Of a stretch of 64,000 bases of DNA, positions 1,360 through 26,607 are shown piece after piece. The DNA comes from Minisyncoccota bacterium. GTDB taxonomy: Bacteria; Patescibacteriota; Minisyncoccia; Phycocordibacterales; PALSA-1337. The notes beneath the pieces are model-generated. The model saw only the letters and a list, made by a program, of their open reading frames with translations. It did not search any database and was not told the origin of the DNA. The number at the start of each line of letters is the position of its first letter. The first letter of the stretch is position 1. The stretch covers positions 201,086-265,085 of the forward strand of contig JBAYFZ010000001.1 in NCBI GenBank assembly GCA_041666915.1. The letters are read 5' to 3'. A program made the translations under genes and the position numbers.

Positions 1360-1485
1360 TCAATAGCTTCCTTCTTTTTAGACCTTTCTTTATCAATTGA
1401 TTCTCCTTCCACATTGTCCATCACCGTCACATGTGTTTTCGGGCATAGTTTTTCCTTTCGTTTTAAAACTACAATCGTCTACTTT

Positions 1486-1560
1486 CTTTGAGTATATCAT
1501 ACACATACGAGTTAAAATCCTGATAAAAAAAGGTTAAAGAAACGATAAAAAAGCGTTAAA
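1486..1560 (-). repeat. Copy C of a dispersed promoter-like repeat (TTTCTTTAACCTTTCTT-ATCAGGATTTTAACTC-TATGTGTATG), pointing at the dehydrogenase gene
   Basis: The reverse complement matches the copies at 10754-10821 and 39279-39336 almost base for base. This includes the downstream TATGTGTATG. Confidence 0.5.
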
Positions 1561-2107
1561 GAAACAATGAAGATTTTGATTCTGTAATGTGGCTACAAAT
1601 AACGATAAAATCTACTTTTACCTCGAGAAGTTGCTAAAAACATGTAAAAAGTGAGAGTAAAAAGGGGTATGTGAGGGTGTTTTTGGGTCAAAAATAATTT
1701 TTATGTAAACATAAATATTTACAGCGTGATAGTTTATACCAATCACTAACAAGTTACCTACGTATAGGTATTTTATGTTTTAAATATGGAAATCGATAAT
1801 CCAAATGCTATATTTCCTATAATAATCAAGGATATCTTATCCAAAGCCTTTTACCTTTTCAAAGATTTATTTGACGCATTTATAGGAACAAAAAAGGACG
1901 AGCGAAGTCGGTAAGAAACAAAAAATTTCAAATATTTGAGAGATGTGCTAGATTTATTCCCTTAATGGATAAATCACCCAACAAAGAAGCGATCGCTTTT
2001 TTCACCGAATGTATAGGCATGGGTGGTGTCCTCATGCTGATCGTTGGATTTTTTCTCCTCAGGATTCTAGAGACTTTTGGAATAGTGAAGGTGAATTTGT
2101 GGAATTA

Positions 2108-2143
2108 AAAAACTGCAAAATCCTTTTGGGATCATGCAGTTTT
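2108..2143 (-). terminator. Rho-independent terminator downstream of the ABC transporter gene
   Basis: The hairpin is AAAACTGCA-loop-TGCAGTTTT, followed by a U-run on the minus strand. Confidence 0.5.
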
Positions 2144-2160
2144 CGTGAATTTAAAATACG

Positions 2161-3978
2161 TTAGGCCAGAATCACTTGATTGTGTACCAAACGTCGATAA
2201 TAACCATCTTTTTGTACAAGTTCCTCGTGAGAACCTTGCTCAACAAGCTTCCCTTCATCAAAGACAAATATTTTGTCGACATCTTTCACTGTCGCCAAAC
2301 GATGAGCAATGATGATGGTCGTCTTTCCAACAGAAGCTTCTCGGATACTTTCCCGAATAATAGCTTCATTTTCAGTATCAAGACTTGAAGTAGCCTCATC
2401 AAAGATCAATATTTGCGGATTCTTGATGAGTGCTCGAGCAATACCGACCCTTTGCCTCTGACCGCCAGACAATTTGAGACCACGTTCACCGACCAAAGTA
2501 TCCCAACCATTTTCAAGCTTATTGGAAAATTCCGATACGCGTGAGAGTTTGGAAATATGGTCAAGTTGTTCGTTGGTAACTTTATCAGCTGACCCATTCA
2601 GACCAAAGGTGATGTTGTAGCGCATAGAACCGTCGAACAGTGCTACGTCTTGCGGTACCAAACCAATATTGCGACGAAGCTCTCGGTAATCGAGCATCCG
2701 TATGTCAACTCCGTCTATCAGTACATGACCAGCCTGAGAATCGTACGCCCTAAGAACAAGTCCTATAAGCGTTGATTTCCCTGCTCCAGATGGACCAACA
2801 AACGCATAACGTTTACCGGGATCTAGAACGAGAGAGATGTCCTGAAGAGCTGGTATCTCCTGATGCTCTTTCGTGGAAGTTTCTTCACCTTCATCGTCAT
2901 TTAATGAATCCTTATCTGTGCGCTTACGATAAGTGAAACTGACGTGACGAAACTCAATTCTCCCTTGCAGATTTTCAATGGGTACCGGCTTATCGGGCAT
3001 TAGAATATCTGGCTGATAATCCAAAAACCTGAAATATTTACTAACAGGTGCTAGATTTTTCATCAGATTACGTTGGACGTGACTAATGTTAGTCAAAGTC
3101 CCTAATGCCGAACCAATCCATATGACAACTGCTACAAATGTTCCTGGTGTAATCGTTCCTTTACGGGCCAAGTAGGCACTAATAGCAATACATAATGTCT
3201 GGGAGATTATCAAAAAGAATTGTCCCCCATAGAAACAAACACCGTAGGATAACCACACTGGCTTACCTTGCAATCCTTCAGTATTCTTTTCTTCGTCACA
3301 CTCTCTTCGCACACGCTCTTCTTGGGCATTAGCAAAGACAAGATCTGCATTTTCTATCACCTCGCCACGTTTCTTTGAAACAGTATTGGATAAAGTGTCC
3401 AATTTTCGTAACCGTGGAGAAAAAGAAGTATTGTACTTCACGGTATAGATGGCATAGCAGATAATTACAAAGATTACACAAGCACCGATAATCGGTACTT
3501 TCACTAGAAGAAGTCCTAGTGGTATGAAAACCATGAGAATAGTCGGAACAAGTTCGTATATTCCCATATTTACAATACCAGCAACGGCAGCTTCTCCTTT
3601 GCTCATAATACTTCGTTTGATGATCGAGTGTCCTGCATGATGTTGGCCCATAGATATGCTGAAAAACTTTTCCAGAGATATCCGTGAGAGATGCCTGTAC
3701 AATTCATAATCCAAATTATGAATTTCAAAACGTTCTCGAAAGAGAGCGAGACTGTTCCTTGTACATCCGAGTAATCCCCAAAGACAGATAGCTATGATCA
3801 GGGTTTGAGTCTCGTCGGTTTTTGACGATGAGACCGACGTTACGATCATTCCAAAGATCATTGGGAATATCGCGATTATCGCTTGAATGACAAGGATAAG
3901 GCCGAGAATACTGATGATTTTACGATGATATGGAGCACATAAGCCCCAAATCCGTTTTAGAGTTTGTACTTTTTTCAC
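2161..3978 (-). CDS. ABC transporter, fused permease/ATPase (type I exporter, MsbA-like)
   Basis: The 605 aa product has an N-terminal 6-TM domain. It carries Walker A GPSGAGKST, the ABC signature LSGGQRQR, and Walker B ILIFDEATSSLD. Confidence 0.9.
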   Translation of the reverse strand: MKKVQTLKRIWGLCAPYHRKIISILGLILVIQAIIAIFPMIFGMIVTSVSSSKTDETQTLIIAICLWGLLGCTRNSLALFRERFEIHNLDYELYRHLSRISLEKFFSISMGQHHAGHSIIKRSIMSKGEAAVAGIVNMGIYELVPTILMVFIPLGLLLVKVPIIGACVIFVIICYAIYTVKYNTSFSPRLRKLDTLSNTVSKKRGEVIENADLVFANAQEERVRRECDEEKNTEGLQGKPVWLSYGVCFYGGQFFLIISQTLCIAISAYLARKGTITPGTFVAVVIWIGSALGTLTNISHVQRNLMKNLAPVSKYFRFLDYQPDILMPDKPVPIENLQGRIEFRHVSFTYRKRTDKDSLNDDEGEETSTKEHQEIPALQDISLVLDPGKRYAFVGPSGAGKSTLIGLVLRAYDSQAGHVLIDGVDIRMLDYRELRRNIGLVPQDVALFDGSMRYNITFGLNGSADKVTNEQLDHISKLSRVSEFSNKLENGWDTLVGERGLKLSGGQRQRVGIARALIKNPQILIFDEATSSLDTENEAIIRESIREASVGKTTIIIAHRLATVKDVDKIFVFDEGKLVEQGSHEELVQKDGYYRRLVHNQVILA

Positions 3979-4089
3979 AAGTCAAAGATCTTTCTTTTGT
4001 TGATGTTAATTTTTTCACGTACGCACGTACGCAAAAATTCTGTGTAACATTATATCACACATTTTATAAAAATCAAGTTTTCTATCACC

Positions 4090-4797
4090 CTAAACCCTCT
4101 CATACAACCCACTCACTTCCCTATGCAAAATCTCTGTTATAGAATCTACAGATTGACCATTGGGGATATTGATTTCACCACCAACATTGATGAAAAACTC
4201 TCTTCGAAGCCACTTACGTTCACCCAGGCGGAATGAGACAGGAATGATATGGACACCAGTCTTTTGTTGGAGGACAGCGGCACCTTTTTTGAATGGACCA
4301 ACTTGGTCGCCATAGGTGATCTTCCCTTCCGGATAAATAACGATATTACCACCAATATGGATGATCTCTACAGCTTTCTCAATATTCTTTTCAATACCCA
4401 AACCAGGGGTTACAGTGAATACCCCAAATAATGAATAAATAAAATCAACAACACCTATTTTAGCGAGAAAATTCAGAGATCTAGTATTGAACTTGGTAAC
4501 AGCCATGAATCGCAAAGGTAGATGATGGGTGAATACACCTAGAACTAGACGAAAGAGAAAACTGTCGTAAAAAGAGACGTGGTTTGTAATGATGACAAAA
4601 GGCCCCTTCGTGCGTGGGAATATTTCTTGGCCACGTATACGGACTTTGAGCGTGCTGTGGAACAACAAGAAAAGCAACGGCCACGTGACGTATTGAGTAA
4701 TTTTGGCAAACTCGTTTATGATCCTCTCTTTTGAGACAGCTTTTTTCGTAGTTGGTATTTCGAACGTATCAGCGATATTTTCCGCAACAGTTGACAT
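4090..4797 (-). CDS. plsC: 1-acyl-sn-glycerol-3-phosphate acyltransferase
   Basis: The HxxxxD motif (NHVSFYD) and the PEG motif (IYPEGKI) are both present. Confidence 0.75.
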   Translation of the reverse strand: MSTVAENIADTFEIPTTKKAVSKERIINEFAKITQYVTWPLLFLLFHSTLKVRIRGQEIFPRTKGPFVIITNHVSFYDSFLFRLVLGVFTHHLPLRFMAVTKFNTRSLNFLAKIGVVDFIYSLFGVFTVTPGLGIEKNIEKAVEIIHIGGNIVIYPEGKITYGDQVGPFKKGAAVLQQKTGVHIIPVSFRLGERKWLRREFFINVGGEINIPNGQSVDSITEILHREVSGLYERV

Positions 4798-17098: not shown

Positions 17099-17809
17099 TC
17101 AATCCACATAAGCCTCTACGATACCTATATGATTTGATAAATGTAATTTGTCGGCCAAATGCGGAAACATGGTCCTATTCGAAAGACCAATACACAAATC
17201 ATCTAATTTATTCAAACCCGGATATGGTAATAGAGTATAAACTAGATCACTACCTTGAATATGTACTCCGTTCACAAAAAGCGGTAACTCATATAGTACA
17301 TAATCTGTTAGTCTATCTAATTCCTCTTGGGACATTTTTGAAATACTCTCTACTCGATCACTTCTTCCAGACACTACGATATCTGTCATAAAATCATGAA
17401 ATTCTTTATTATTTACAAATTCGTCTTTTATCGCCTGTAAATTATATTTGTAAATCTCATTCTGAGTTACATCACCCCATCTCACTACTCGAACTTTATT
17501 CCGATCTTCTGATGATAAAGTGGCAATAATTTCTTGGATCTCTTCATTCTTCTTGTCACCAATCTTTGTAGCTTTCCTCAAAGCACGCTTAGGACTTCGC
17601 TTATCCAATACCTCCAAATTAACTGTATGCAACGCATCAGGTATTACGATTAAAACACCATCTTTGGTATTAGCAATAGCCCATTTAATATACTTTTCAA
17701 TGTTATCTTTAAAAAAATATTTATTTCCAAGACTTATACCTAACCATATATTATGACGTTTATCTCTTATTTCTTCTGGAGTTATATTCAAATAAGTATT
17801 AATCCTCAT
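17099..17809 (-). CDS. tRNA-dependent cyclodipeptide synthase (CDPS, AlbC/YvmC family)
   Basis: The 236 aa product has WLGISLGNKYF (compare AlbC LIGISAGNSYF and YvmC LVGISPFNSRF, which hold the catalytic Ser). It also has YVLYELPLF (compare AlbC YVLAEAPLF, Y178/E182). Size and motif spacing fit a CDPS. Confidence 0.7.
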   Translation of the reverse strand: MRINTYLNITPEEIRDKRHNIWLGISLGNKYFFKDNIEKYIKWAIANTKDGVLIVIPDALHTVNLEVLDKRSPKRALRKATKIGDKKNEEIQEIIATLSSEDRNKVRVVRWGDVTQNEIYKYNLQAIKDEFVNNKEFHDFMTDIVVSGRSDRVESISKMSQEELDRLTDYVLYELPLFVNGVHIQGSDLVYTLLPYPGLNKLDDLCIGLSNRTMFPHLADKLHLSNHIGIVEAYVD

Positions 17810-19528: not shown

Positions 19529-20077
19529 CTAATTCCAAATAATATTCAATTTCGGCCACTTTTCTTTCCAGCGCTTACTCACCACTCTATCGTTGTATGC
19601 CCCAGCATCAGAACATCTAGGATTCATCCGTACAACCAAATTCACCAAATCATCAATCCCGAACGAAGCATGGAGTCGTAGTTCCCCATTATTATCCATA
19701 GACACCGCTATACATGTTGGTATTTCTACCCAATCAGCTAAAGCGTCCTGCGTATCTTTATATGACCCTCTATTGTGCCATTTATGGGTATAAGCTTGAT
19801 TGACAATCTCCCAATCTACACCAGTTTTTTCCTTGGCTTCCAGAGATAGTTGACTATCTTTATTTTCATCAATATTGTTTTTGTCAAAATATATGAGATC
19901 AATATCCCTTGTCGGCACCTTCTCATTTTTATATCCATGCAGATAATCCCAAACTTTATTTCTCACAAACCCTGCACCAATCATCCAATCTGGCAAATTC
20001 AATTTTTGAGCAACGTGCAAAATATCCATCATCCATTTATCATCTTCAATAATTTTTAGAATGTCTTGTTCGGTCAT
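19529..20077 (-). CDS. Nucleotidyltransferase family protein (NTP_transf_6/PF06042-like)
   Basis: WMIGAGFVRNKVWDYLHG...TRDIDLIYFD shows a GxG...DxD nucleotidyltransferase fold pattern. The length is 182 aa. Confidence 0.45.
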   Translation of the reverse strand: MTEQDILKIIEDDKWMMDILHVAQKLNLPDWMIGAGFVRNKVWDYLHGYKNEKVPTRDIDLIYFDKNNIDENKDSQLSLEAKEKTGVDWEIVNQAYTHKWHNRGSYKDTQDALADWVEIPTCIAVSMDNNGELRLHASFGIDDLVNLVVRMNPRCSDAGAYNDRVVSKRWKEKWPKLNIIWN

Positions 20078-20101: not shown

Positions 20102-20716
20102 ATGGTTATGAATAGTTTATGTTATCATTTTAATACCAACATGTCCCTACTCACTGAACAAAGTAACAAATTCAAGAGCCTCGCGGATGACTTACTCGCC
20201 TCATCAAAATTACCCCAGATTTTAGAAAAATATGGTCAAGTCAGGTTCGTCGGTTCTTACTCGGCAGGATTGATGATGCATGGTGACATTGACATTCACA
20301 TCCTCCGCGACAAAGAGTTTACTAAACAAGAAACGTTGAATATGTTCAATGAAATTGTTGCTTCCACCAAATTCAACAGTTATTACATTGGTGACTGGAA
20401 TGACAGTAATGTTCACCCCAAATTTCCTTATGGATATTACATCGGTTTGAAGACACGGATTGGCGATATTAGATGGAAAATTGATATTTGGTTTGTGAGT
20501 ATTGCTGAGCAGAATCGATTCAATAAGGAAAATATGGATGTAACGAAGCTCACCCTATCTGACGAGCAACGAGAAGCTATTCTAACATTCAAAAAATACC
20601 GACAAGAAAACGGTGTCAAAATATCTGGACAAGAGATTTATGAAATGGTTATAAACAAAGGAATCAACAAACTAGAAGAATTCAAACATTTATTGAAAGA
20701 TCACGTTTCAAAATAA
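20102..20716 (+). CDS. Minimal nucleotidyltransferase-fold protein with a helical C-terminal domain; likely start MSLLTEQS at 20141
   Basis: VRFVGSYSAGLMMHGDIDIHIL fits hG[GS]...DhDh. It is divergently arranged with the previous nucleotidyltransferase gene. Its 3' end overlaps the convergent NUDIX gene. Confidence 0.45.
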   Translation: MVMNSLCYHFNTNMSLLTEQSNKFKSLADDLLASSKLPQILEKYGQVRFVGSYSAGLMMHGDIDIHILRDKEFTKQETLNMFNEIVASTKFNSYYIGDWNDSNVHPKFPYGYYIGLKTRIGDIRWKIDIWFVSIAEQNRFNKENMDVTKLTLSDEQREAILTFKKYRQENGVKISGQEIYEMVINKGINKLEEFKHLLKDHVSK

Positions 20717-21505: not shown

Positions 21506-22123
21506 TTACGCAAAAAGTTTTGCGGCTACAGAAACAATAAAGGCTAGGAGGCCCAGCACGAACAATGTAAAGCGTTTTTGAGATAACATTTCAATTTGGT
21601 ACTTTACGATTGCATGCTTTTCCTTCAGTGGTCCTGAAAAAGTACTGTCAAGCATTCTTTGAATTTTTAAACCTTGGTTCTCCGCAAAAAGTTTCCTTGG
21701 ATACTCATGCTGGCTTTTATTTTCTTTCTCCCAAAGCAGTCTTTCAGATTCCAATATATCTTTTACATTTCTAGTTTTTTCTTCTAAAGCCTTTTTATTT
21801 TCTTCATTGCTTAGAGTTACTTTTATGAACTGTAATAATGATGGAGTATAAAATTCCTTCATTATCTTATCCAAATCAGATTCAAAATCTGATTTCCATT
21901 TATCTTTCTGACTATCAAAGATACTTTTTCTCAGAGACTCCCTGTACTTAGCGTACAACGTAAGAAGTAGGCACAGAACAAGAAGAACGATTGAGACAAT
22001 AGTAGAAATCTTGAAATAGACAGTTTGCCCCGTCTGAAGGGAATATAAAACCACAAAGGCAGCCAACAGGGCTATCGATGCTGTGATTAAGACATTATCA
22101 ATCTTCTCAATTTGATCTTTCAT
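21506..22123 (-). CDS. Hypothetical membrane protein (N-terminal 2 TM, coiled coil, C-terminal TM)
   Basis: Assessed by hydrophobicity pattern only. Confidence 0.4.
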   Translation of the reverse strand: MKDQIEKIDNVLITASIALLAAFVVLYSLQTGQTVYFKISTIVSIVLLVLCLLLTLYAKYRESLRKSIFDSQKDKWKSDFESDLDKIMKEFYTPSLLQFIKVTLSNEENKKALEEKTRNVKDILESERLLWEKENKSQHEYPRKLFAENQGLKIQRMLDSTFSGPLKEKHAIVKYQIEMLSQKRFTLFVLGLLAFIVSVAAKLFA

Positions 22124-22419
22124 ATTAATTTAATGCTTTCTTCATTATGGGTCTTATAAAAATGCTCTTCGGACTCCGAACCTTTCTGCGAAATTGCTGG
22201 CAGGGCTGGACGATGTTCGAACATTTCGCAATATAAATGAGTATGCAGTCAAGGCAATATACCACTTCTTCAGAAGCGTCTGTGAGTCCCCTTCCTTTAC
22301 AATATCTGATTGGTTTCTGTTATATCATTCGGGAAGTATCGACGATATATGGAATTGAAAAAAGACGGCAAAAATTGCCGGGACAAGCAACTTTTACAGT
22401 GAACCGTTACTTGTTTTGT

Positions 22420-22863
22420 TTAAATTACTTCAACTCTCCTCTTAATTTCATAAACAGTTGCAAACGGAAATATGAATGACCCTTTAATCATTTCTGGCTT
22501 ACCATTAATCTCAATGATTGTTTTACGAGCGTATGGTTTTGAAGAATTCTTTCCGTAAATAGACTCAAACATAAGAGGGTTACTAATTTTGTTATTTATC
22601 TCAAAAGAGTCATAAATCTTTACAGACTTTCCTTTCAAAATTCCCTCTATTACATTCTGCTCCATATGGTCTGGCATATCTGCAAAAGTTATGTTTGACC
22701 AAAACTTCATTTGGAAGTTTAGATTATATCGTCTAGCTAATTTCCTAAGACGTAACGACCTTAGCAATTTAGGCCCCATAACAGGAATTGAAAAGATTGG
22801 AAGTAAAATCAGACCAACAATACAAATAGCACCAAATACTTTTATGTTTTCTAAGGATATCAT
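22420..22863 (-). CDS. Hypothetical membrane-anchored protein (operon member 4)
   Basis: It has an N-terminal TM (FGAICIVGLILLPIFSIPV). It lies 2 nt downstream of the previous gene. Confidence 0.4.
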   Translation of the reverse strand: MISLENIKVFGAICIVGLILLPIFSIPVMGPKLLRSLRLRKLARRYNLNFQMKFWSNITFADMPDHMEQNVIEGILKGKSVKIYDSFEINNKISNPLMFESIYGKNSSKPYARKTIIEINGKPEMIKGSFIFPFATVYEIKRRVEVI

Positions 22864-22864
22864 C

Positions 22865-23143
22865 TTATTCTATATTATTCTTCATCCACTCATTCACTTC
22901 TTTAGATACTCCGTATGTCCCCCAATGTTTAACGATCTGAATGACCAATAATTTATCATTAGCATCAAGGAAGCCTTTTAGCTCATCCCTAATTTCACCA
23001 GCAGTTTTTTTACTTTTTACAAACCATACGGAATATAATGGCTTTGCCCACCATGAATAAGACTTAATCTTTGCTATAAGATTAACATAATCCTGTCGTG
23101 TTTCTGGTTGACCTAGATCATATGAAATAAGGTAGGTATTCAT
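22865..23143 (-). CDS. Small alpha/beta protein with Cas2-like secondary-structure pattern (operon member 3)
   Basis: The 92 aa product has YLISYDL..., LYSVWFVKS and KLLVIQI, resembling the beta1-alpha1-beta2-alpha2-beta3 order of Cas2/VapD-like ferredoxin folds. This is a resemblance only. Confidence 0.3.
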   Translation of the reverse strand: MNTYLISYDLGQPETRQDYVNLIAKIKSYSWWAKPLYSVWFVKSKKTAGEIRDELKGFLDANDKLLVIQIVKHWGTYGVSKEVNEWMKNNIE

Positions 23144-23148
23144 TATTA

Positions 23149-23790
23149 TTATTTTATTTCTGAAGTCACAGATACTGGGTTTGTAGATCCAACATCCCTG
23201 ATTTCTTCGATACTTGCCAACTCCACCCCCGTCTCCGAGTCCGTTTGTGGAATTTTTGATAAAATCAGATTCAACATCTCTTGTTTTTTCACCAGTTCAA
23301 TATTTTGCTTTTGAAGTTTACCATTTTCGTCAATAAGTTTCTCAGCAAATTTCACCACACGTTCACGATTAAAGGCACTCTGATCTCTATCGTTTTTTAT
23401 TTCCGCAAGTTCTTTCTGATGTTCAACTCTTTCGGCATTTAATTTTTCTTGATTTTTTTCATCATCCCATAATTTATTCGCTTTATTCCTAATCATTTCT
23501 TGTATATCATTAAGTCTTCCCCTCGCTCCAAAAAAATTGAATTCTTCAATTGAAAAGAAAAGGTACGTAAATACTTTCCTAAAGAAGATAAGCGCACAAA
23601 GTGTAATCGCTGGCCAAATTGTTGCGTTAATTAAGCTTATTAAATGATCGTATGTTAGACCGAAATGAGCAATCGGGATTAATATTGCACCAACTAAAAC
23701 AACAAAGATAACATATGGTAGTAGATCAACAAATTTAGTGGCGAGATTATTCATTCCGATATGGAAATTTACATAACAAAACCTTACCAT
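23149..23790 (-). CDS. Hypothetical membrane protein with a C-terminal coiled coil (operon member 2)
   Basis: It has 3 N-terminal TM helices followed by a K/E-rich coiled coil. Confidence 0.4.
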   Translation of the reverse strand: MVRFCYVNFHIGMNNLATKFVDLLPYVIFVVLVGAILIPIAHFGLTYDHLISLINATIWPAITLCALIFFRKVFTYLFFSIEEFNFFGARGRLNDIQEMIRNKANKLWDDEKNQEKLNAERVEHQKELAEIKNDRDQSAFNRERVVKFAEKLIDENGKLQKQNIELVKKQEMLNLILSKIPQTDSETGVELASIEEIRDVGSTNPVSVTSEIK

Positions 23791-23890
23791 ATTATTTGCA
23801 GAAAAGGAAGGTTTTTAAGAAAATTTCTTCAACTATTAAAATTCCCAATTATTAGTTACAACTACTCCAAATGTAGCCATCAACGATAAA

Positions 23891-24487
23891 TTAAACAATA
23901 GTCGGCTGACACGTCTTAAATGCGAGGACCTCAGAATTGCGCATCAAAATGGTCTTGTTTGTAGTATACGACAAACCTTTGTTTGGCTGATTCTCAAAAC
24001 CAAGATAGACACAACTTACCTTTCGCGCACGAACTTCTTTGATGGCTGGTTGCAGATCAGAATCGGAACTAGCCAATATAATTTCTTTTACAGATTCGTC
24101 ACAAGCCATTGTTACCATATCAACAGCAATTTTTACATCCACACCCTTTTCTTTAAAAACCAAGACTTTCTTTCCATTCAGACCTTCTTCCATTTGCCCC
24201 CTGACGCGTCCACGTAAAACCACTTCAAAACCCTGATTTTCCAGATGAGTCTTCAACAAACGTTGCTCTTCTATGAGTTGCTGGGATTTTTCCCTGCTTC
24301 CTTCATGTACTTTAATCTGGGCAAAATAGAAGATCTTACGATCAATAACAAAACCTTCCAAGACTTTCACAAATAATCCACGAAAATCAAATTCATGCCA
24401 TACTGGTTTGTTGTTTTTAGTCTCACTGAAAACGGCCCTTATTTTGCCCTTGAGATTCTCCCCATCAATTAACAGGACTGTTTCCAT
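23891..24487 (-). CDS. NYN-domain (LabA-like) putative RNase (operon member 1)
   Basis: LIDGENL, KGVDVKIAVDMV and ILASSDSDLQPAIK match NYN/LabA catalytic motifs. Confidence 0.65.
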   Translation of the reverse strand: METVLLIDGENLKGKIRAVFSETKNNKPVWHEFDFRGLFVKVLEGFVIDRKIFYFAQIKVHEGSREKSQQLIEEQRLLKTHLENQGFEVVLRGRVRGQMEEGLNGKKVLVFKEKGVDVKIAVDMVTMACDESVKEIILASSDSDLQPAIKEVRARKVSCVYLGFENQPNKGLSYTTNKTILMRNSEVLAFKTCQPTIV

Positions 24488-24675: not shown

Positions 24676-26073
24676 ATGCCCACATATTTTGTTTACTGCC
24701 GCAAATCTACCGAAGCCGAGGATAGGCAGATTTTATCAATTGATTCTCAGATCAATGAACTCAAACAGCATGCCATAAAGAAAGGAATCAAAATTGTAGC
24801 TGTTCTGACCGAGGCCAAATCAGCCAAGGCACCGGGACGTCCGGTGTTTAATTCTCTAATGGAACGGTTGTACCGTGGTGAAGCTGATGGAATCCTGTGC
24901 TGGAAATTGGACCGTCTTGCTCGTAACCCTGTTGATGGTGGTGCTATCATCTGGGCCATGAAGGAACATGGGGTAAAAATTATTACCCCTTTACAGACAT
25001 ACGGACAATCCGAAGACAATGTCGTCTGGATGTACCTGGAATTTGGCATGGCACAGAAATACGTTGATGACTTGAGCCGAACCGTAAAACGGGGTTTGCG
25101 GGCGAAAGCGGAATCTGGTTGGTTTCCAAGCGTTACCCCGCCAGGATACATGAATTGTGAGAACGACGAGGGACGCAATGTTATCGCCAAGGATCCCAAA
25201 CGATTTGATATTATCCGAAAGTGCTGGGACTTAATGCTTACTGGAAAGTACACACCTCCAGAAATCAGAGAAATTGCCAATACCGCATGGAGGTATACAA
25301 CAAATCATGGAAATCCTCTGGGGCGTAGCACCATTTACAACATCTTTTCAAATCCCTTTTACCATGGCACTTATGAATATCCAAGAGGAAGTGATAACTG
25401 GCACACTGGTCGGCATACCCCTATGATAACAGAGGAAGAATTTGATACGGTCCAACACATTTTATCACGATCTCGCCATATGCCACGAAACCGCAAGGTG
25501 TTTGCCTTCACTGGAATCATCCGGTGCGGTGGATGCCAAGGCGCTGTGACAGCAGAGGAAAAGCATCAGATTATATGCCCAGTCTGTAAATTGAAGTTCG
25601 CTTACCGCTCCAAAGAGCAGTGTCCACGATGCCAGACAGCTATCGCAAACATGGTAAAACCAGTCCACCTCACTTACACCTACTACCACTGTACCAAATC
25701 TTCCAATCCCGCCTGTACCGAGCTCGGAGTTGAGCGAAAAGAATTGGAACGTCAGATCATTCGCCACCTTGAAGGTGTGCATCTTCCCGATTTTCACAAC
25801 CACTGGGTTAACACCTGTTTTGGACGTTTGAGCACAAAACCGGATACCACCAGCATGTTGGCAGTCATTACCCAATCATTCCCCAATAGCAGTCCAGATG
25901 TTCAACGAGAAATTGTTACATCAATATTTTCAGCAATAGTTCTGAAGGATAGGGAGATTGGCGTTTCGCTCAAAATTCCCTTTTCATTCCCTAACAAGGC
26001 TGAGGTGCCCACCCCGCTTGACCAAAAATCCTTTACTCAAAAGACGTTGCAGGAGCACATGTCCAGATCGTGA
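24676..26073 (+). mobile_element. Large serine recombinase (phage-type serine integrase/transposase)
   Basis: The N-terminal resolvase domain is YFVYCRKSTEAEDRQ...LDRLARN. A recombinase domain and a Cys-rich zinc ribbon (CGGCQG...CPVCK...CPRC) follow. Local GC is about 47-50% against about 33-35% around it. Confidence 0.8.
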
Positions 26074-26352
26074 CGATTGGTAACCTAAAGCCGACGAAAG
26101 TCCCCTTACAGAAGGAAAACTACCAGTGGCAGCATATTGCTGACGTAAAACTTGAAGAGCTTCCTTTTCTGGTTCGGTGAGTAAATCTTGAACTGCTTTT
26201 TCCTCTTGATTTTTCACACTAGCAGCAATGTGGCAGAGACCAAGGAACCGTACACCCATGTCATGAATTTCTTCATCAGTAGATTCTATTCCTGATTTTC
26301 GTTGGATTTTACGCAGATGCTTAAACGTGCGAGTGGAAAGTATTGGGATCAT
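25984..26352 (-). CDS. Small wHTH protein with a LexA-N-terminal-like DNA-binding domain (possible excisionase/regulator); start uncertain, 3' end overlaps the recombinase gene
   Basis: LTEPEKEALQVLRQQYAATGSFPSVRGLSSALGYQSSRSGHVLLQRLLSKGFL resembles the LexA_DNA_bind fold. Confidence 0.35.
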   Translation of the reverse strand: MIPILSTRTFKHLRKIQRKSGIESTDEEIHDMGVRFLGLCHIAASVKNQEEKAVQDLLTEPEKEALQVLRQQYAATGSFPSVRGLSSALGYQSSRSGHVLLQRLLSKGFLVKRGGHLSLVRE

Positions 26353-26468: not shown

Positions 26469-26536
26469 ACATGAAAAAAATGGCTTAACAAAAGCCCAGT
26501 TACGAACATCAAATATCCAAGAACTGTATCAGTGTG

Positions 26537-26607
26537 CTGGGGGACAGGGACTCGAACCCCGATAATCAGGACCAAAACCTGATGTCCTACCATTAGACGA
26601 TCCCCCA
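26537..26607 (-). tRNA. tRNA-Gln (anticodon TTG)
   Basis: The cloverleaf was folded by hand: acceptor UGGGGGA/UCCCCCA, D stem GUCU/GGAC, anticodon stem UCAGG/CCUGA with loop UUUUGGU, and T arm CGGGG-UUCGAGU-CCCUG. CCA is not encoded. Confidence 0.8.

Follow-up and report, generated by a model that had tools for sequence, protein, structure and literature searches.

To our knowledge, Cas2 is universal in CRISPR-Cas systems, in which no role has been established for its nuclease activity; a popular hypothesis derives Cas2 from a toxin of mobile elements. The Cas2 fold also occurs in the E. coli type V toxin-antitoxin system GhoS/GhoT, in which the RNase GhoS, encoded by the first gene, controls the small membrane toxin GhoT. 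BPSL1038 from Burkholderia pseudomallei is a stand-alone Cas2/VapD-like dsDNA endonuclease (PDB 7VXR; PMC10491678). VapD toxins belong to the type II systems VapXD, VapYD and VapWD and are frequent on mobile DNA, and their partners are exchangeable (PMC11980593). A 2012 paper already noted mobile elements on which Cas2 homologs stand alone beside resolvases or relaxases (PMC3506569), and toxins embedded in restriction-modification (R-M) systems, such as PrrC in EcoprrI, are a further point of comparison, together with the immunity-suicide coupling hypothesis (PMC3506569).

Here we describe a locus encoding a 92 aa protein of the same superfamily, C2L92. Its family, C2L, is a very large and essentially unstudied group of stand-alone Cas2-like proteins that keep an Asp/Ser site, and it behaves as the constant member of a two-gene cassette in which the partner gene is swapped; this cassette often lies inside restriction operons. 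A specific description of this family, or of a Cas2-like protein linked with LexA, was not found in the literature.

Layout of the locus

ORF calling on the window, i.e. the whole 64,000-nt stretch of DNA analysed, returned five minus-strand ORFs at exactly the coordinates given by the first-pass annotation (Table 1). The gaps measure 100 nt between NYN198 and CC213, 5 nt between CC213 and C2L92, 1 nt between C2L92 and TM147 and 296 nt between TM147 and TM205. CC213 and C2L92 are translationally coupled, and together with TM147 they form a tightly coupled operon, which is the functional unit at the locus. The terminator-like hairpin directly after TM147 is predicted to close this operon, and TM205, previously noted to follow it, would therefore be a separate transcription unit; TM205 was rejected as an operon member on account of this terminator and of its lack of recurrence beside C2L genes. 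The promoter-like site upstream of CC213 is weak evidence, because the number of such sites in the region was not above shuffled expectation.

Table 1. Features of the locus, with positions in the window.
Feature	Position	Strand	Remark
NYN198, NYN/LabA-type nuclease	23891..24487	-	neighbouring conserved cellular gene, outside the recurrent cassette
CC213, 2-TM coiled-coil membrane protein	23149..23790	-	proximal, exchangeable cassette gene
C2L92, stand-alone Cas2/VapD-superfamily protein (92 aa)	22865..23143	-	conserved distal cassette gene
TM147, orphan, N-terminal TM anchor	22420..22863	-	operon gene 3
TM205, orphan membrane and coiled-coil protein	21506..22123	-	outside the cassette
Intrinsic-terminator-like hairpin CGGCAATTTTTGCCG, then T-run	22366..22397	-	directly after TM147
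Promoter-like site TTAAAA, 16 nt spacer, AATAAT	23791..23818	-	in the NYN198-CC213 gap; consensus match only
Large serine recombinase (Resolvase, Recombinase and Zn ribbon)	24676..26073	+	context

The cassette is the most AT-rich stretch in the window (GC 0.31-0.35), with values of 0.40 for NYN198, similar to core genes, and 0.46 for the recombinase. The adjacency of a serine recombinase was borne out, since this gene starts 188 nt from NYN198 in divergent orientation, and in about 12 of 152 loci a related recombinase was found no more than 8 kb from the C2L gene. No att-like or tRNA-Gln duplications delimiting an integrated element were found. According to the precomputed Pfam annotations, no recognised defence gene lies within about 10 kb on each side of the cassette; in other genomes the C2L family is associated with mobile DNA and defence genes.

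The other operon proteins had been described as membrane proteins with coiled coils. This is correct for CC213, which combines a variable coiled coil and a tail rich in acidic residues and Ser with two TM helices, at about residues 23-41 and 50-68, whereas TM147 has one N-terminal TM helix and no evident coiled coil. Alignment of the CC213 family showed an invariant juxtamembrane motif, WP..L.FF(R/K)KV.T..FFS..EFNFFG..G.L; the NCBI start of CC213 is M13 (23754). The family is rare (7 clusters in 5.8 billion proteins), is without a Pfam, PADLOC or PHROG family, and in 14 loci its gene immediately precedes C2L, the gap being -4 to +18 nt. TM147 had no homolog in 216 loci or in phages and appears from these searches to be an orphan, lineage-specific protein; its AF2 single-sequence model was unusable (pLDDT 55). 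The phage collection held no match to either TM147 or CC213.

As previously noted from motifs, no named system was matched. A search of PADLOC-DB v2 with the locus proteins gave only partial or weak matches and no named or candidate system, the matches of CC213 and TM205 falling in coiled-coil regions of JetA and JetC.

Fold, conserved residues and relatives of C2L92

The AF2 model of C2L92 (pLDDT 92.2) predicts a Cas2/VapD-type fold with topology b-a-b-b-a-b-a (strands 2-9, 31-36, 39-44 and 64-69; helices 16-27, 48-56 and 81-90). The best Foldseek matches in the PDB were Cas2 proteins, and GhoS (2llz, E=2.6e-3, TM 0.57) and BPSL1038 (7vxr_B, TM 0.77/0.81, rmsd 2.5) were also recovered. The putative active-site residues are D9, at the end of beta1, and S38, in the beta2-beta3 turn. 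In an unbiased representative set D9 was conserved in 91% of the family, S38 in 94%, D63 in 96% and Y19 in 99%, and D9 and S38 were conserved across all partner classes. The model, its PDB matches and the conserved beta1 Asp support the Cas2/VapD-like assignment made in the first-pass annotation.

At the sequence level the family stands apart. C2L92 scored below the gathering threshold of the Pfam Cas2 profile PF09827 (E=0.0066, 17.1 bits vs 23.8), only 13 of 45 family members matched that profile at E<=0.1, and the PADLOC Cas2b match was weak (2.2e-5). C2L92 had no NCBIfam match, and the Pfam and NCBIfam searches gave no homology to GhoS or GhoT for either C2L92 or CC213. When PDB sequences were searched with the family profile, only a marginal Cas2 match was returned (E=1.1), with no homology to GhoS. 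C2L92 matched phrog_1090, a phage protein family without assigned function, over nearly its full length (E=4.6e-25, residues 1-91 on profile positions 1-88 of 90), and C2L homologs were present in 47 phage records, some of which label the relatives 'Cas2'. The family comprises about 1,400-4,700 clusters at 50% identity (4,694 at E<=1e-3), and in one fusion three C2L domains are joined to an HHH_3 DNA-binding domain. Therefore, the locus proteins are not all unknowns as had been assumed, the Cas2-like family being phrog_1090 and stand-alone Cas2 homologs having been noted in 2012 (PMC3506569).

BPSL1038, whose genome is without CRISPR, shares with C2L92 the Asp at the end of beta1, a Ser/Thr at the beta2-beta3 turn and, as judged from the model, the same topology with an appended alpha3 helix. 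However, its motif is D11(X20)SST, as compared with D9(X28)S38 and a single Ser in C2L, and searching PDB sequences with the C2L profile failed to recover 7VXR even at E<=10. Moreover, BPSL1038 is described as chromosomally conserved in Burkholderia, whereas C2L belongs to a partner-swapping mobile cassette. VapD belongs to the same superfamily with a catalytic Asp and Ser, the equivalence to C2L being inferred from fold position and not from structural superposition, and it is likewise found on mobile DNA, about half stand-alone, SOS-linked and with exchangeable partners. In contrast, VapD structures fell outside the top 50 PDB matches, C2L constitutes its own sequence family, and the upstream partners recorded in our census are CC213, 2-TM, PIN_8, PIN_12, DUF2188 and LexA/S24 proteins and not VapX, VapY or VapW; in the window, no second Cas2-like (VapW-like) gene is adjacent to C2L92. 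The locus resembles GhoS/GhoT in that a small Cas2-fold protein is encoded beside a membrane protein, CC213, but the two genes stand in the opposite order, CC213 has a coiled coil and far exceeds GhoT in size, and many C2L partners are not membrane proteins.

Partner exchange and restriction operons

C2L genes were found in temperate-phage lysogeny modules, small plasmids and defence islands. Viral contigs carry them alongside integrases and repressors of the CI type, Enterococcus and Staphylococcus phages have solitary, moron-like copies on their lysogenic strand, and small ColE1-type plasmids show the order HEPN (PD-T4-5/AbiD-like), C2L, PIN_8. A census of 152 C2L loci was then used to define the partners. 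In about 150 loci C2L was nearly always the downstream (distal) gene of a two-gene cassette; in about 86 loci it is separated from the partner by -4 to +18 nt. The proximal gene is exchangeable and encodes one of three membrane-protein families, PIN_8, PIN_12, DUF2188 or a LexA-type repressor (PIN_8 16, DUF2188 16, LexA/S24 15, CC213 14, small 2-TM 14 and PIN_12 11 loci). PIN nucleases and membrane proteins together account for over half of the classified partners, the latter type including proteins of 91-155 aa with 2-3 TM helices and a PycTM-like partner (L005); a WYL-like partner was also present. The small DUF2188 protein precedes C2L with 4-nt gaps, and the link to PIN_8 is kept in both gene orders. 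About 20 of the 152 loci had no coupled ORF upstream of C2L. A divergent Hyphomicrobium subfamily (L033-L083) shows fixed synteny in the his-gene region, which gave no functional clue.

The nearest-neighbour C2L shared the partner class in 55 of 73 cases, as against a shuffled mean of 11.4 and a maximum of 22, suggesting that C2L co-diversifies with its partner class; common ancestry of the loci could account for part of this clustering. We conclude with high confidence that the conserved core is a mobile two-gene cassette, made of an exchangeable proximal gene and a conserved distal C2L gene.

Defence genes near C2L elsewhere include R-M, Shedu SduA (downstream in 5 loci), GmrSD, OLD/AAA_15, PD-T4-5/AbiD-like and PIN genes. 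R-M or defence genes lay within 4 kb in 7 of 12 loci of the CC213 class, 7 of 13 of the small-2TM class and 5 of 9 of the PIN_12 class. In at least 8 loci the pair occupies a slot between the methyltransferase and restriction genes (Mod-X-C2L-Res), X being CC213, a small 2-TM protein, PIN_12 or PIN_8. In two such operons (L008 and L022) Mod and Res are 65% and 82% identical, while C2L is only 54% identical and X is unrelated, which shows the swapping of whole X-C2L pairs within a conserved methyltransferase/Res restriction operon.

This position between Mod and Res, seen in several genomes, recalls PrrC in EcoprrI, although PrrC is a single anticodon nuclease and not a two-gene polymorphic cassette, and the window copy has no adjacent R-M genes. 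We considered that C2L and its exchangeable partner might represent an undescribed polymorphic back-up cassette of R-M systems, inserted into a ParB-N6/N4-methyltransferase/Res operon between its Mod and Res genes and also placed next to genes of the BglII, EcoRI, MmeI and Shedu types. The Cas2-fold protein would be the constant sensor or controller, coupling failure of the first-line nuclease to suicide at the membrane or RNA level. We regard this as a speculative and rather improbable extension; if true, it would be a free-living counterpart to what Cas2 was once hypothesised to do within CRISPR-Cas, and the window copy would be a stand-alone version.

Proposed function and rival explanations

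The cassette is probably a conflict module of the toxin-antitoxin, abortive-infection or addiction type. In such a module the variable proximal proteins, here CC213, would be the effectors and C2L a nuclease-type controller or sensor that stays constant. If this control were abolished, by phage attack, loss of the element or failure of a linked R-M system, the effector, be it a membrane protein or a nuclease, would arrest the cell or kill it. A mobile conflict cassette with a proximal effector and a C2L controller is, in our opinion, the best overall explanation and may well be correct, short of being probable. Proximal proteins are preferred as effectors because the majority of them are of effector type (three membrane families including the PycTM-like one, PIN_8, PIN_12 and the plasmid HEPN), and a nuclease controlling a membrane toxin, following the logic of GhoS/GhoT, would account for partners of the membrane, PIN and HEPN types. 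This polarity, drawn by analogy, is itself proposed tentatively and with some doubt.

Several observations count against it. In type II toxin-antitoxin systems the toxin gene is usually downstream, which is the position of C2L, and ghoS precedes ghoT. C2L occurs by itself in the cultured phages and in the loci that lack a coupled upstream ORF, CC213 relatives also occur without C2L, sequence similarity to GhoS was not detected, and the window cassette has no recognised defence gene nearby. The DUF2188 and LexA/S24 partners resemble antitoxins or regulators and not effectors, and therefore fit the opposite polarity, with C2L as the toxin; a HicB-like antitoxin fold has been proposed for DUF2188 (PMC13621843).

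With the roles inverted in this way, C2L92 would be a VapD-like toxic nuclease acting on DNA and/or RNA and causing growth arrest or an SOS response, and the upstream gene would encode its antitoxin or regulator; for the window copy this would mean that C2L92 is sequestered or restrained at the membrane by CC213. The conserved Asp/Ser dyad matches the catalytic residues of VapD and BPSL1038 (PMC11980593; PMC10491678), C2L follows at 4-nt distance a small protein, DUF2188, proposed to resemble HicB antitoxins (PMC13621843), and the LexA/CI-type and WYL-like partners are of regulator types. Furthermore, the SOS response is induced by VapD toxins, of which about 50% are stand-alone (PMC11980593), and a toxin/addiction role was proposed in 2012 for stand-alone Cas2 homologs beside resolvases (PMC3506569). 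However, PIN nucleases and membrane proteins, the majority of the classified partners, are implausible antitoxins, and the solitary phage copies would need to be non-toxic. We consider this inverted arrangement rather unlikely.

Alternatively, C2L could be a single-gene accessory of mobile elements whose neighbours merely share operons in gene-dense islands. It might then serve as a defence or superinfection-exclusion nuclease, as a counter-defence factor (a decoy of host Cas1-Cas2 or an antitoxin mimic), or as a nuclease linked to SOS or DNA damage. Both the loci without a coupled upstream ORF and the solitary copies in cultured phages indicate that C2L can exist alone, and the repertoire of partners and neighbours is extremely diverse. 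The LexA partners, a Y-family polymerase downstream of C2L in L004, Vsr in L019 and the triple-C2L/HHH_3 fusion are also in line with this proposal. Against it stand the short gaps in about 86 loci, the co-diversification with partner class and the exchange of whole pairs, and the PIN_8 link maintained in both gene orders; a single-gene accessory is thus quite improbable.

The first-pass annotation had instead grouped NYN198, CC213, C2L92 and TM147, with TM205 possibly included, into one novel multi-gene defence or abortive-infection system. The genes share a strand and are closely spaced, and the identification of NYN198 as a NYN/LabA-type nuclease proved correct (Pfam NYN E=4e-15, 57 bits vs gathering 24.2). 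Its catalytic aspartates are intact: 34 orthologs show no variation at G9-E10-N11 of the DGxN motif, D117, D123 and S141-D142-S143-D144, and the conservation of D8 reaches at least 90%. NYN198 also gives partial matches to the PADLOC candidate HEC-09 (2.4e-9) and to a NYN defence profile, and as the NYN fold is PIN-like and C2L is often paired with PIN-like nucleases elsewhere, a local functional analogy is conceivable. However, NYN198 has more than 2,000 homologs in CPR genomes, the top 120 at 70-85% identity; these orthologs lie on thousands of CPR contigs in differing, unrelated contexts without C2L, CC213 or any other Cas2-like gene nearby. Apart from two distant matches in an alignment-based scan of IMG/VR, they were absent from viral contigs, the single-sequence scans for NYN198 and the recombinase having been too strict. 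NYN198 was rejected as a module member on these grounds and for its GC content, unlike that of the cassette, and it is a highly conserved cellular CPR gene unrelated to the cassette, which is why a four-gene defence system does not hold. When co-occurrence of the four genes was checked in other genomes, only CC213 recurred with C2L (14 loci); NYN198, TM147 and TM205 were found beside C2L in 0 of about 150 other loci. The closest CC213-C2L relative (L084, 79% and 67% identity) lies behind a BglII R-M system with no NYN gene, and a terminator precedes TM205. The comparative data have thus largely refuted the multi-gene system, which we judge very unlikely. The corrected annotation of the window is a three-gene operon with a two-gene mobile core, beside an unrelated conserved NYN gene.

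That C2L92 is a true Cas2 of CRISPR adaptation, or the remnant of a decayed CRISPR-Cas locus, has next to no probability and was rejected: the Cas2 fold, the beta1 Asp, the weak PF09827 and PADLOC Cas2b matches, the relatives annotated as Cas2 and one family member on a viral contig (L122) about 190 nt from an 11-repeat array are in its favour, but the window contains no CRISPR array and, among its annotated neighbours, no cas-type Pfam, L122 is the only one of the 152 loci with an array, no Cas1-sized family recurs among C2L neighbours, cas1 being essentially absent, the Pfam score is below gathering, and the family has its own conserved signature, an extra C-terminal helix and entirely different gene neighbourhoods.

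Finally, C2L has cultivable carriers, among them Enterococcus phage phiFL1A (gp05), Staphylococcus pseudintermedius phages and Klebsiella/Rahnella plasmids of 4-6 kb. These carriers bring the ancestral role of Cas2-like proteins outside CRISPR within direct experimental reach.

Gene organization of the locus

All five minus-strand ORFs described in the first-pass annotation were found at their coordinates, which are listed in the table. The intergenic gaps are 100 nt between NYN198 and CC213, 5 nt between CC213 and C2L92, 1 nt between C2L92 and TM147, and 296 nt between TM147 and TM205. An intrinsic-type terminator-like hairpin lies directly 3' of TM147, thus closing the operon before TM205. 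On the opposite strand, 188 nt from NYN198, a gene encodes a large serine recombinase with Resolvase, Recombinase and Zn-ribbon domains that matches the phrog_95 integrase. It is followed by the gene of a 122 aa LexA-type protein, which shares 90 nt with the 3' end of the recombinase gene and adjoins tRNA-Gln. No CRISPR array was found in the window. The contig is part of a CPR genome (Candidatus Paceibacterota) that measures at least 450 kb, and assemblies from two other samples carried identical proteins in the same gene order. The GC content was 0.40 (core-like) for NYN198, 0.31-0.35 for the cassette described below and 0.46 for the recombinase.

Coordinates of the features discussed (window positions unless a locus is named)
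Feature	Position	Strand	Description
Cyclodipeptide synthase	17099-17809	-	236 aa, PF16715
Nucleotidyltransferase	19529-20077	-	Divergent pair
Nucleotidyltransferase	20102-20716	+	Divergent pair
TM205	21506-22123	-	Membrane and coiled-coil protein
Hairpin	22366-22397		Terminator-like
TM147	22420-22863	-	Single N-terminal TM helix
C2L92	22865-23143	-	92 aa Cas2-like protein
CC213	23149-23790	-	Membrane protein with coiled coil
NYN198	23891-24487	-	NYN/LabA-type protein
122 aa protein	25984-26352	-	LexA-type wHTH as sole domain, no S24 peptidase
tRNA-Gln	26536-26607		
Divergent C2L gene	L064:7998-8360		~119 aa subfamily
CC213 element	L094:2124-4872		Contig of 5.0-5.4 kb
C2L with CRISPR array	L122:3610-4900		IMGVR_UViG_3300008495_000083
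DUF2188-C2L pair	L207:4729-5448	-	Metagenomic lineage
Mod-[X]-[C2L]-Res			L008, L022, L176, L140, L174, L181, L142, L147

The window holds a mobile two-gene cassette, CC213 and C2L92, extended by the orphan TM147. CC213 consists of two TM helices, a variable coiled coil, an acidic tail and an invariant juxtamembrane motif, WP...FF(R/K)KV.T..FFS..EFNFFG. Searches of CC213, TM147 and TM205 against Pfam, NCBIfam, PHROG and PADLOC returned no family match except coiled-coil noise, and the CC213 family is rare, with 7 clusters in 5.8 billion proteins. CC213 relatives also exist without C2L, the family of stand-alone Cas2-like genes that includes C2L92; one of them shares an element of 5.4 kb with a Rep gene and a serine recombinase related to that of the window. 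On the contigs L094 and L095 (5.0-5.4 kb), a CC213 homolog is accompanied by a Rep of rolling-circle type (REP_ORF2-G2P) and by a large serine recombinase 34% identical to that of the window, which suggests that CC213 genes are carried by small integrative or replicative elements.

The NYN/LabA assignment of NYN198 proved bona fide (Pfam 4e-15). Over 34 orthologs the mean column identity was 79%, with G9-E10-N11, D117, D123 and SDSD invariant and D8 at least 90% conserved. More than 2,000 homologs were found, the best 120 having the same length and 70-85% identity. The ortholog contexts are unrelated, with neither C2L nor CC213 nearby, and essentially no orthologs occurred in IMG/VR viral contigs. 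This conservation, the unrelated contexts, the near-absence from viral contigs and the core-like GC identify NYN198 as a conserved cellular CPR gene that neighbours the cassette by chance. In some CPR genomes integrases adjoin its homologs, the gene context being variable despite the unusual conservation.

Fold and family of C2L92

The Cas2 profile matches of C2L92 were weak (Pfam, 17.1 bits, below gathering; PADLOC Cas2b, 2.2e-5). With 45 homologs as input, AlphaFold2 gave a model with a pLDDT of 92.2 and a b-a-b-b-a-b-a topology. Its best PDB matches were Cas2 proteins from various CRISPR types, GhoS (the antitoxin of a type V system) and BPSL1038. The last of these, a stand-alone dsDNA endonuclease of Cas2/VapD type that has been characterised by experiment (PMC10491678), gave the highest TM-score (0.77/0.81) and bears the same appended C-terminal helix as C2L92. 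The confident model and its matches thus confirmed the Cas2-like fold guessed earlier for the 92 aa protein.

C2L92 matched phrog_1090, which has no assigned function, over its full length (E=4.6e-25), and a C2L profile search of 1.84 billion representatives returned 4,694 clusters at E<=1e-3, a number that falls to 1,437 at E<=1e-10; almost all are about 90 aa long. In 142 unbiased representatives with 30-59% identity to C2L92, conservation was 96% for Y8, 91% for D9, 99% for L10, 99% for Y19, 94% for S38, 96% for D63 and 94% for W86. D9 is located at the end of beta1 and S38 in the turn between beta2 and beta3; as judged from topology, they would correspond to the catalytic Asp and Ser/Thr whose positions are known in VapD (PMC11980593) and BPSL1038 (PMC10491678). 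The constant component of the cassette is a member of the Cas2/VapD superfamily in which the Asp/Ser site is conserved.

The profile search also returned domain fusions and tandems (P0173, P0105, P0127, P0189): a 324 aa protein joins three domain copies to an HHH_3 DNA-binding domain, one tandem pair also matches ChrB_N, and internal domains occur in proteins of 510 aa and 1,507 aa. In Hyphomicrobium genomes, a divergent, longer subfamily (L033-L083) has a fixed place in the region of the histidine-biosynthesis genes, downstream of an HTH-like ORF.

VapD toxin-antitoxin systems and BPSL1038 are relatives that have been characterised. C2L92 differs from CRISPR Cas2 in lacking cas1 and an array, and in its sub-gathering Pfam score; its partners differ from those of VapXD, VapYD and VapWD, and no kinship with GhoS or BPSL1038 was detected at the sequence level. 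Stand-alone Cas2 homologs of mobile elements, encoded next to a resolvase or relaxase, were noted in 2012, with a proposed toxin or addiction role (PMC3506569), and integron cassettes with Cas2-like genes were mentioned in 2013 (PMC3710099). In the literature we found no description of phrog_1090 as a partner-swapping cassette, of membrane-protein partners of C2L, CC213 included, or of a C2L slot inside restriction operons.

Partner exchange at C2L loci

About 150 non-redundant C2L loci were collected from genomes, metagenomes, viral contigs, phage records and plasmids. At most of them C2L is the second, distal member of a gene pair with translational coupling, the two genes lying -4 to +18 nt apart; 20 loci have no coupled upstream ORF. 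The proximal genes belong to unrelated families: PIN_8 (16 loci), DUF2188 (16), LexA/CI-type HTH-S24 (15), CC213 (14, directly upstream), a 2-TM family of 91-120 aa (14), PIN_12 (11), a PycTM-like protein and others. Full LexA/S24 repressors are among the commonest partners elsewhere; the LexA-type protein of the window has the wHTH only. CC213 was the sole neighbour of C2L92 to recur; NYN198, TM147 and TM205 never did. The four-gene defence system proposed by the first-pass annotation is not supported.

At the sequence level, C2L proteins group by partner class: in 55 of 73 cases the nearest-neighbour C2L was of the same class, while the expected number was 11.4 and none of 500 shuffles exceeded 22. 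The pair also occupies a slot in a conserved restriction operon, between a ParB-N6/N4 methyltransferase (Mod, ~700 aa) and a Res helicase-endonuclease (~900 aa), where the proximal gene X is CC213, a small 2-TM protein, PIN_12 or PIN_8, four unrelated families. Between L008 and L022, Mod is 65% and Res 82% identical, whereas C2L is just 54% identical and X is unrelated, which indicates that the X-C2L pair is the unit of exchange.

A search with a limited set of queries placed restriction-modification or other defence genes within 4 kb at 7 of 12 CC213-class, 7 of 13 2-TM-class and 5 of 9 PIN_12-class loci, and at about 31% of all loci. These neighbours include BglII, EcoRI-like, MmeI, GmrSD and OLD/AAA_15 genes, and Shedu SduA lies downstream of C2L in five loci. 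About 12 loci have a serine recombinase related to that of the window no more than 8 kb away. C2L was found on 103 plasmids; on ColE1-type plasmids of 4-6 kb the sole cargo is [HEPN PD-T4-5/AbiD-like]-[C2L]-[PIN_8]. This cassette occurs in Klebsiella and Rahnella, and the Klebsiella pC51_006 protein is, like phiFL1A gp05, a homolog from a cultivable source. Temperate phages of Enterococcus (phiFL1-3 gp05) and Staphylococcus pseudintermedius carry C2L, annotated as Cas2 in some records, on the lysogenic strand in the immunity/early region near the integrase.

No Cas1-sized family recurred near C2L genes, and just one of 152 loci, L122, had a CRISPR array. On this 5.9 kb viral contig C2L lies ~190 nt upstream of an 11-repeat array (repeat GTTAAATTAAATAATCCCCTGATGGGGACGGAAAC), with no cas1 in the 3.6 kb upstream. 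The DUF2188-class loci L198-L216 belong to one metagenomic lineage, in a region rich in toxin-antitoxin-type genes; their neighbours are an HTH-Panacea (SocA-like antitoxin domain) gene, a 136 aa gene without assignment and a ParB-methyltransferase.

Possible role of the cassette

We infer a role in biological conflict, with the cassette acting as a toxin-antitoxin, abortive-infection or addiction module. In the polarity that we tentatively favour, since most partners are of effector type (membrane proteins, PIN, HEPN), the variable partners may be the effectors and C2L would serve as a constant nuclease-type controller or sensor. GhoS and GhoT follow such a logic, a membrane toxin being controlled by a Cas2-fold RNase. 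The reverse arrangement, with C2L as a VapD-like toxin, appears somewhat less probable; it is consistent with the downstream position of C2L, with the DUF2188 and LexA partners, which resemble antitoxins or regulators, and with the SOS induction triggered by VapD toxins (PMC11980593). That C2L acts alone, as its lone copies in phages might suggest, is improbable.

Elsewhere in the window, a precomputed Pfam call assigns a cyclodipeptide synthase (CDPS), an enzyme uncommon in CPR genomes. Two nucleotidyltransferase genes of different kinds, one NTP_transf_6 and the other a weak Pol-beta-type match, diverge next to a NUDIX hydrolase gene and could represent a further small accessory module.
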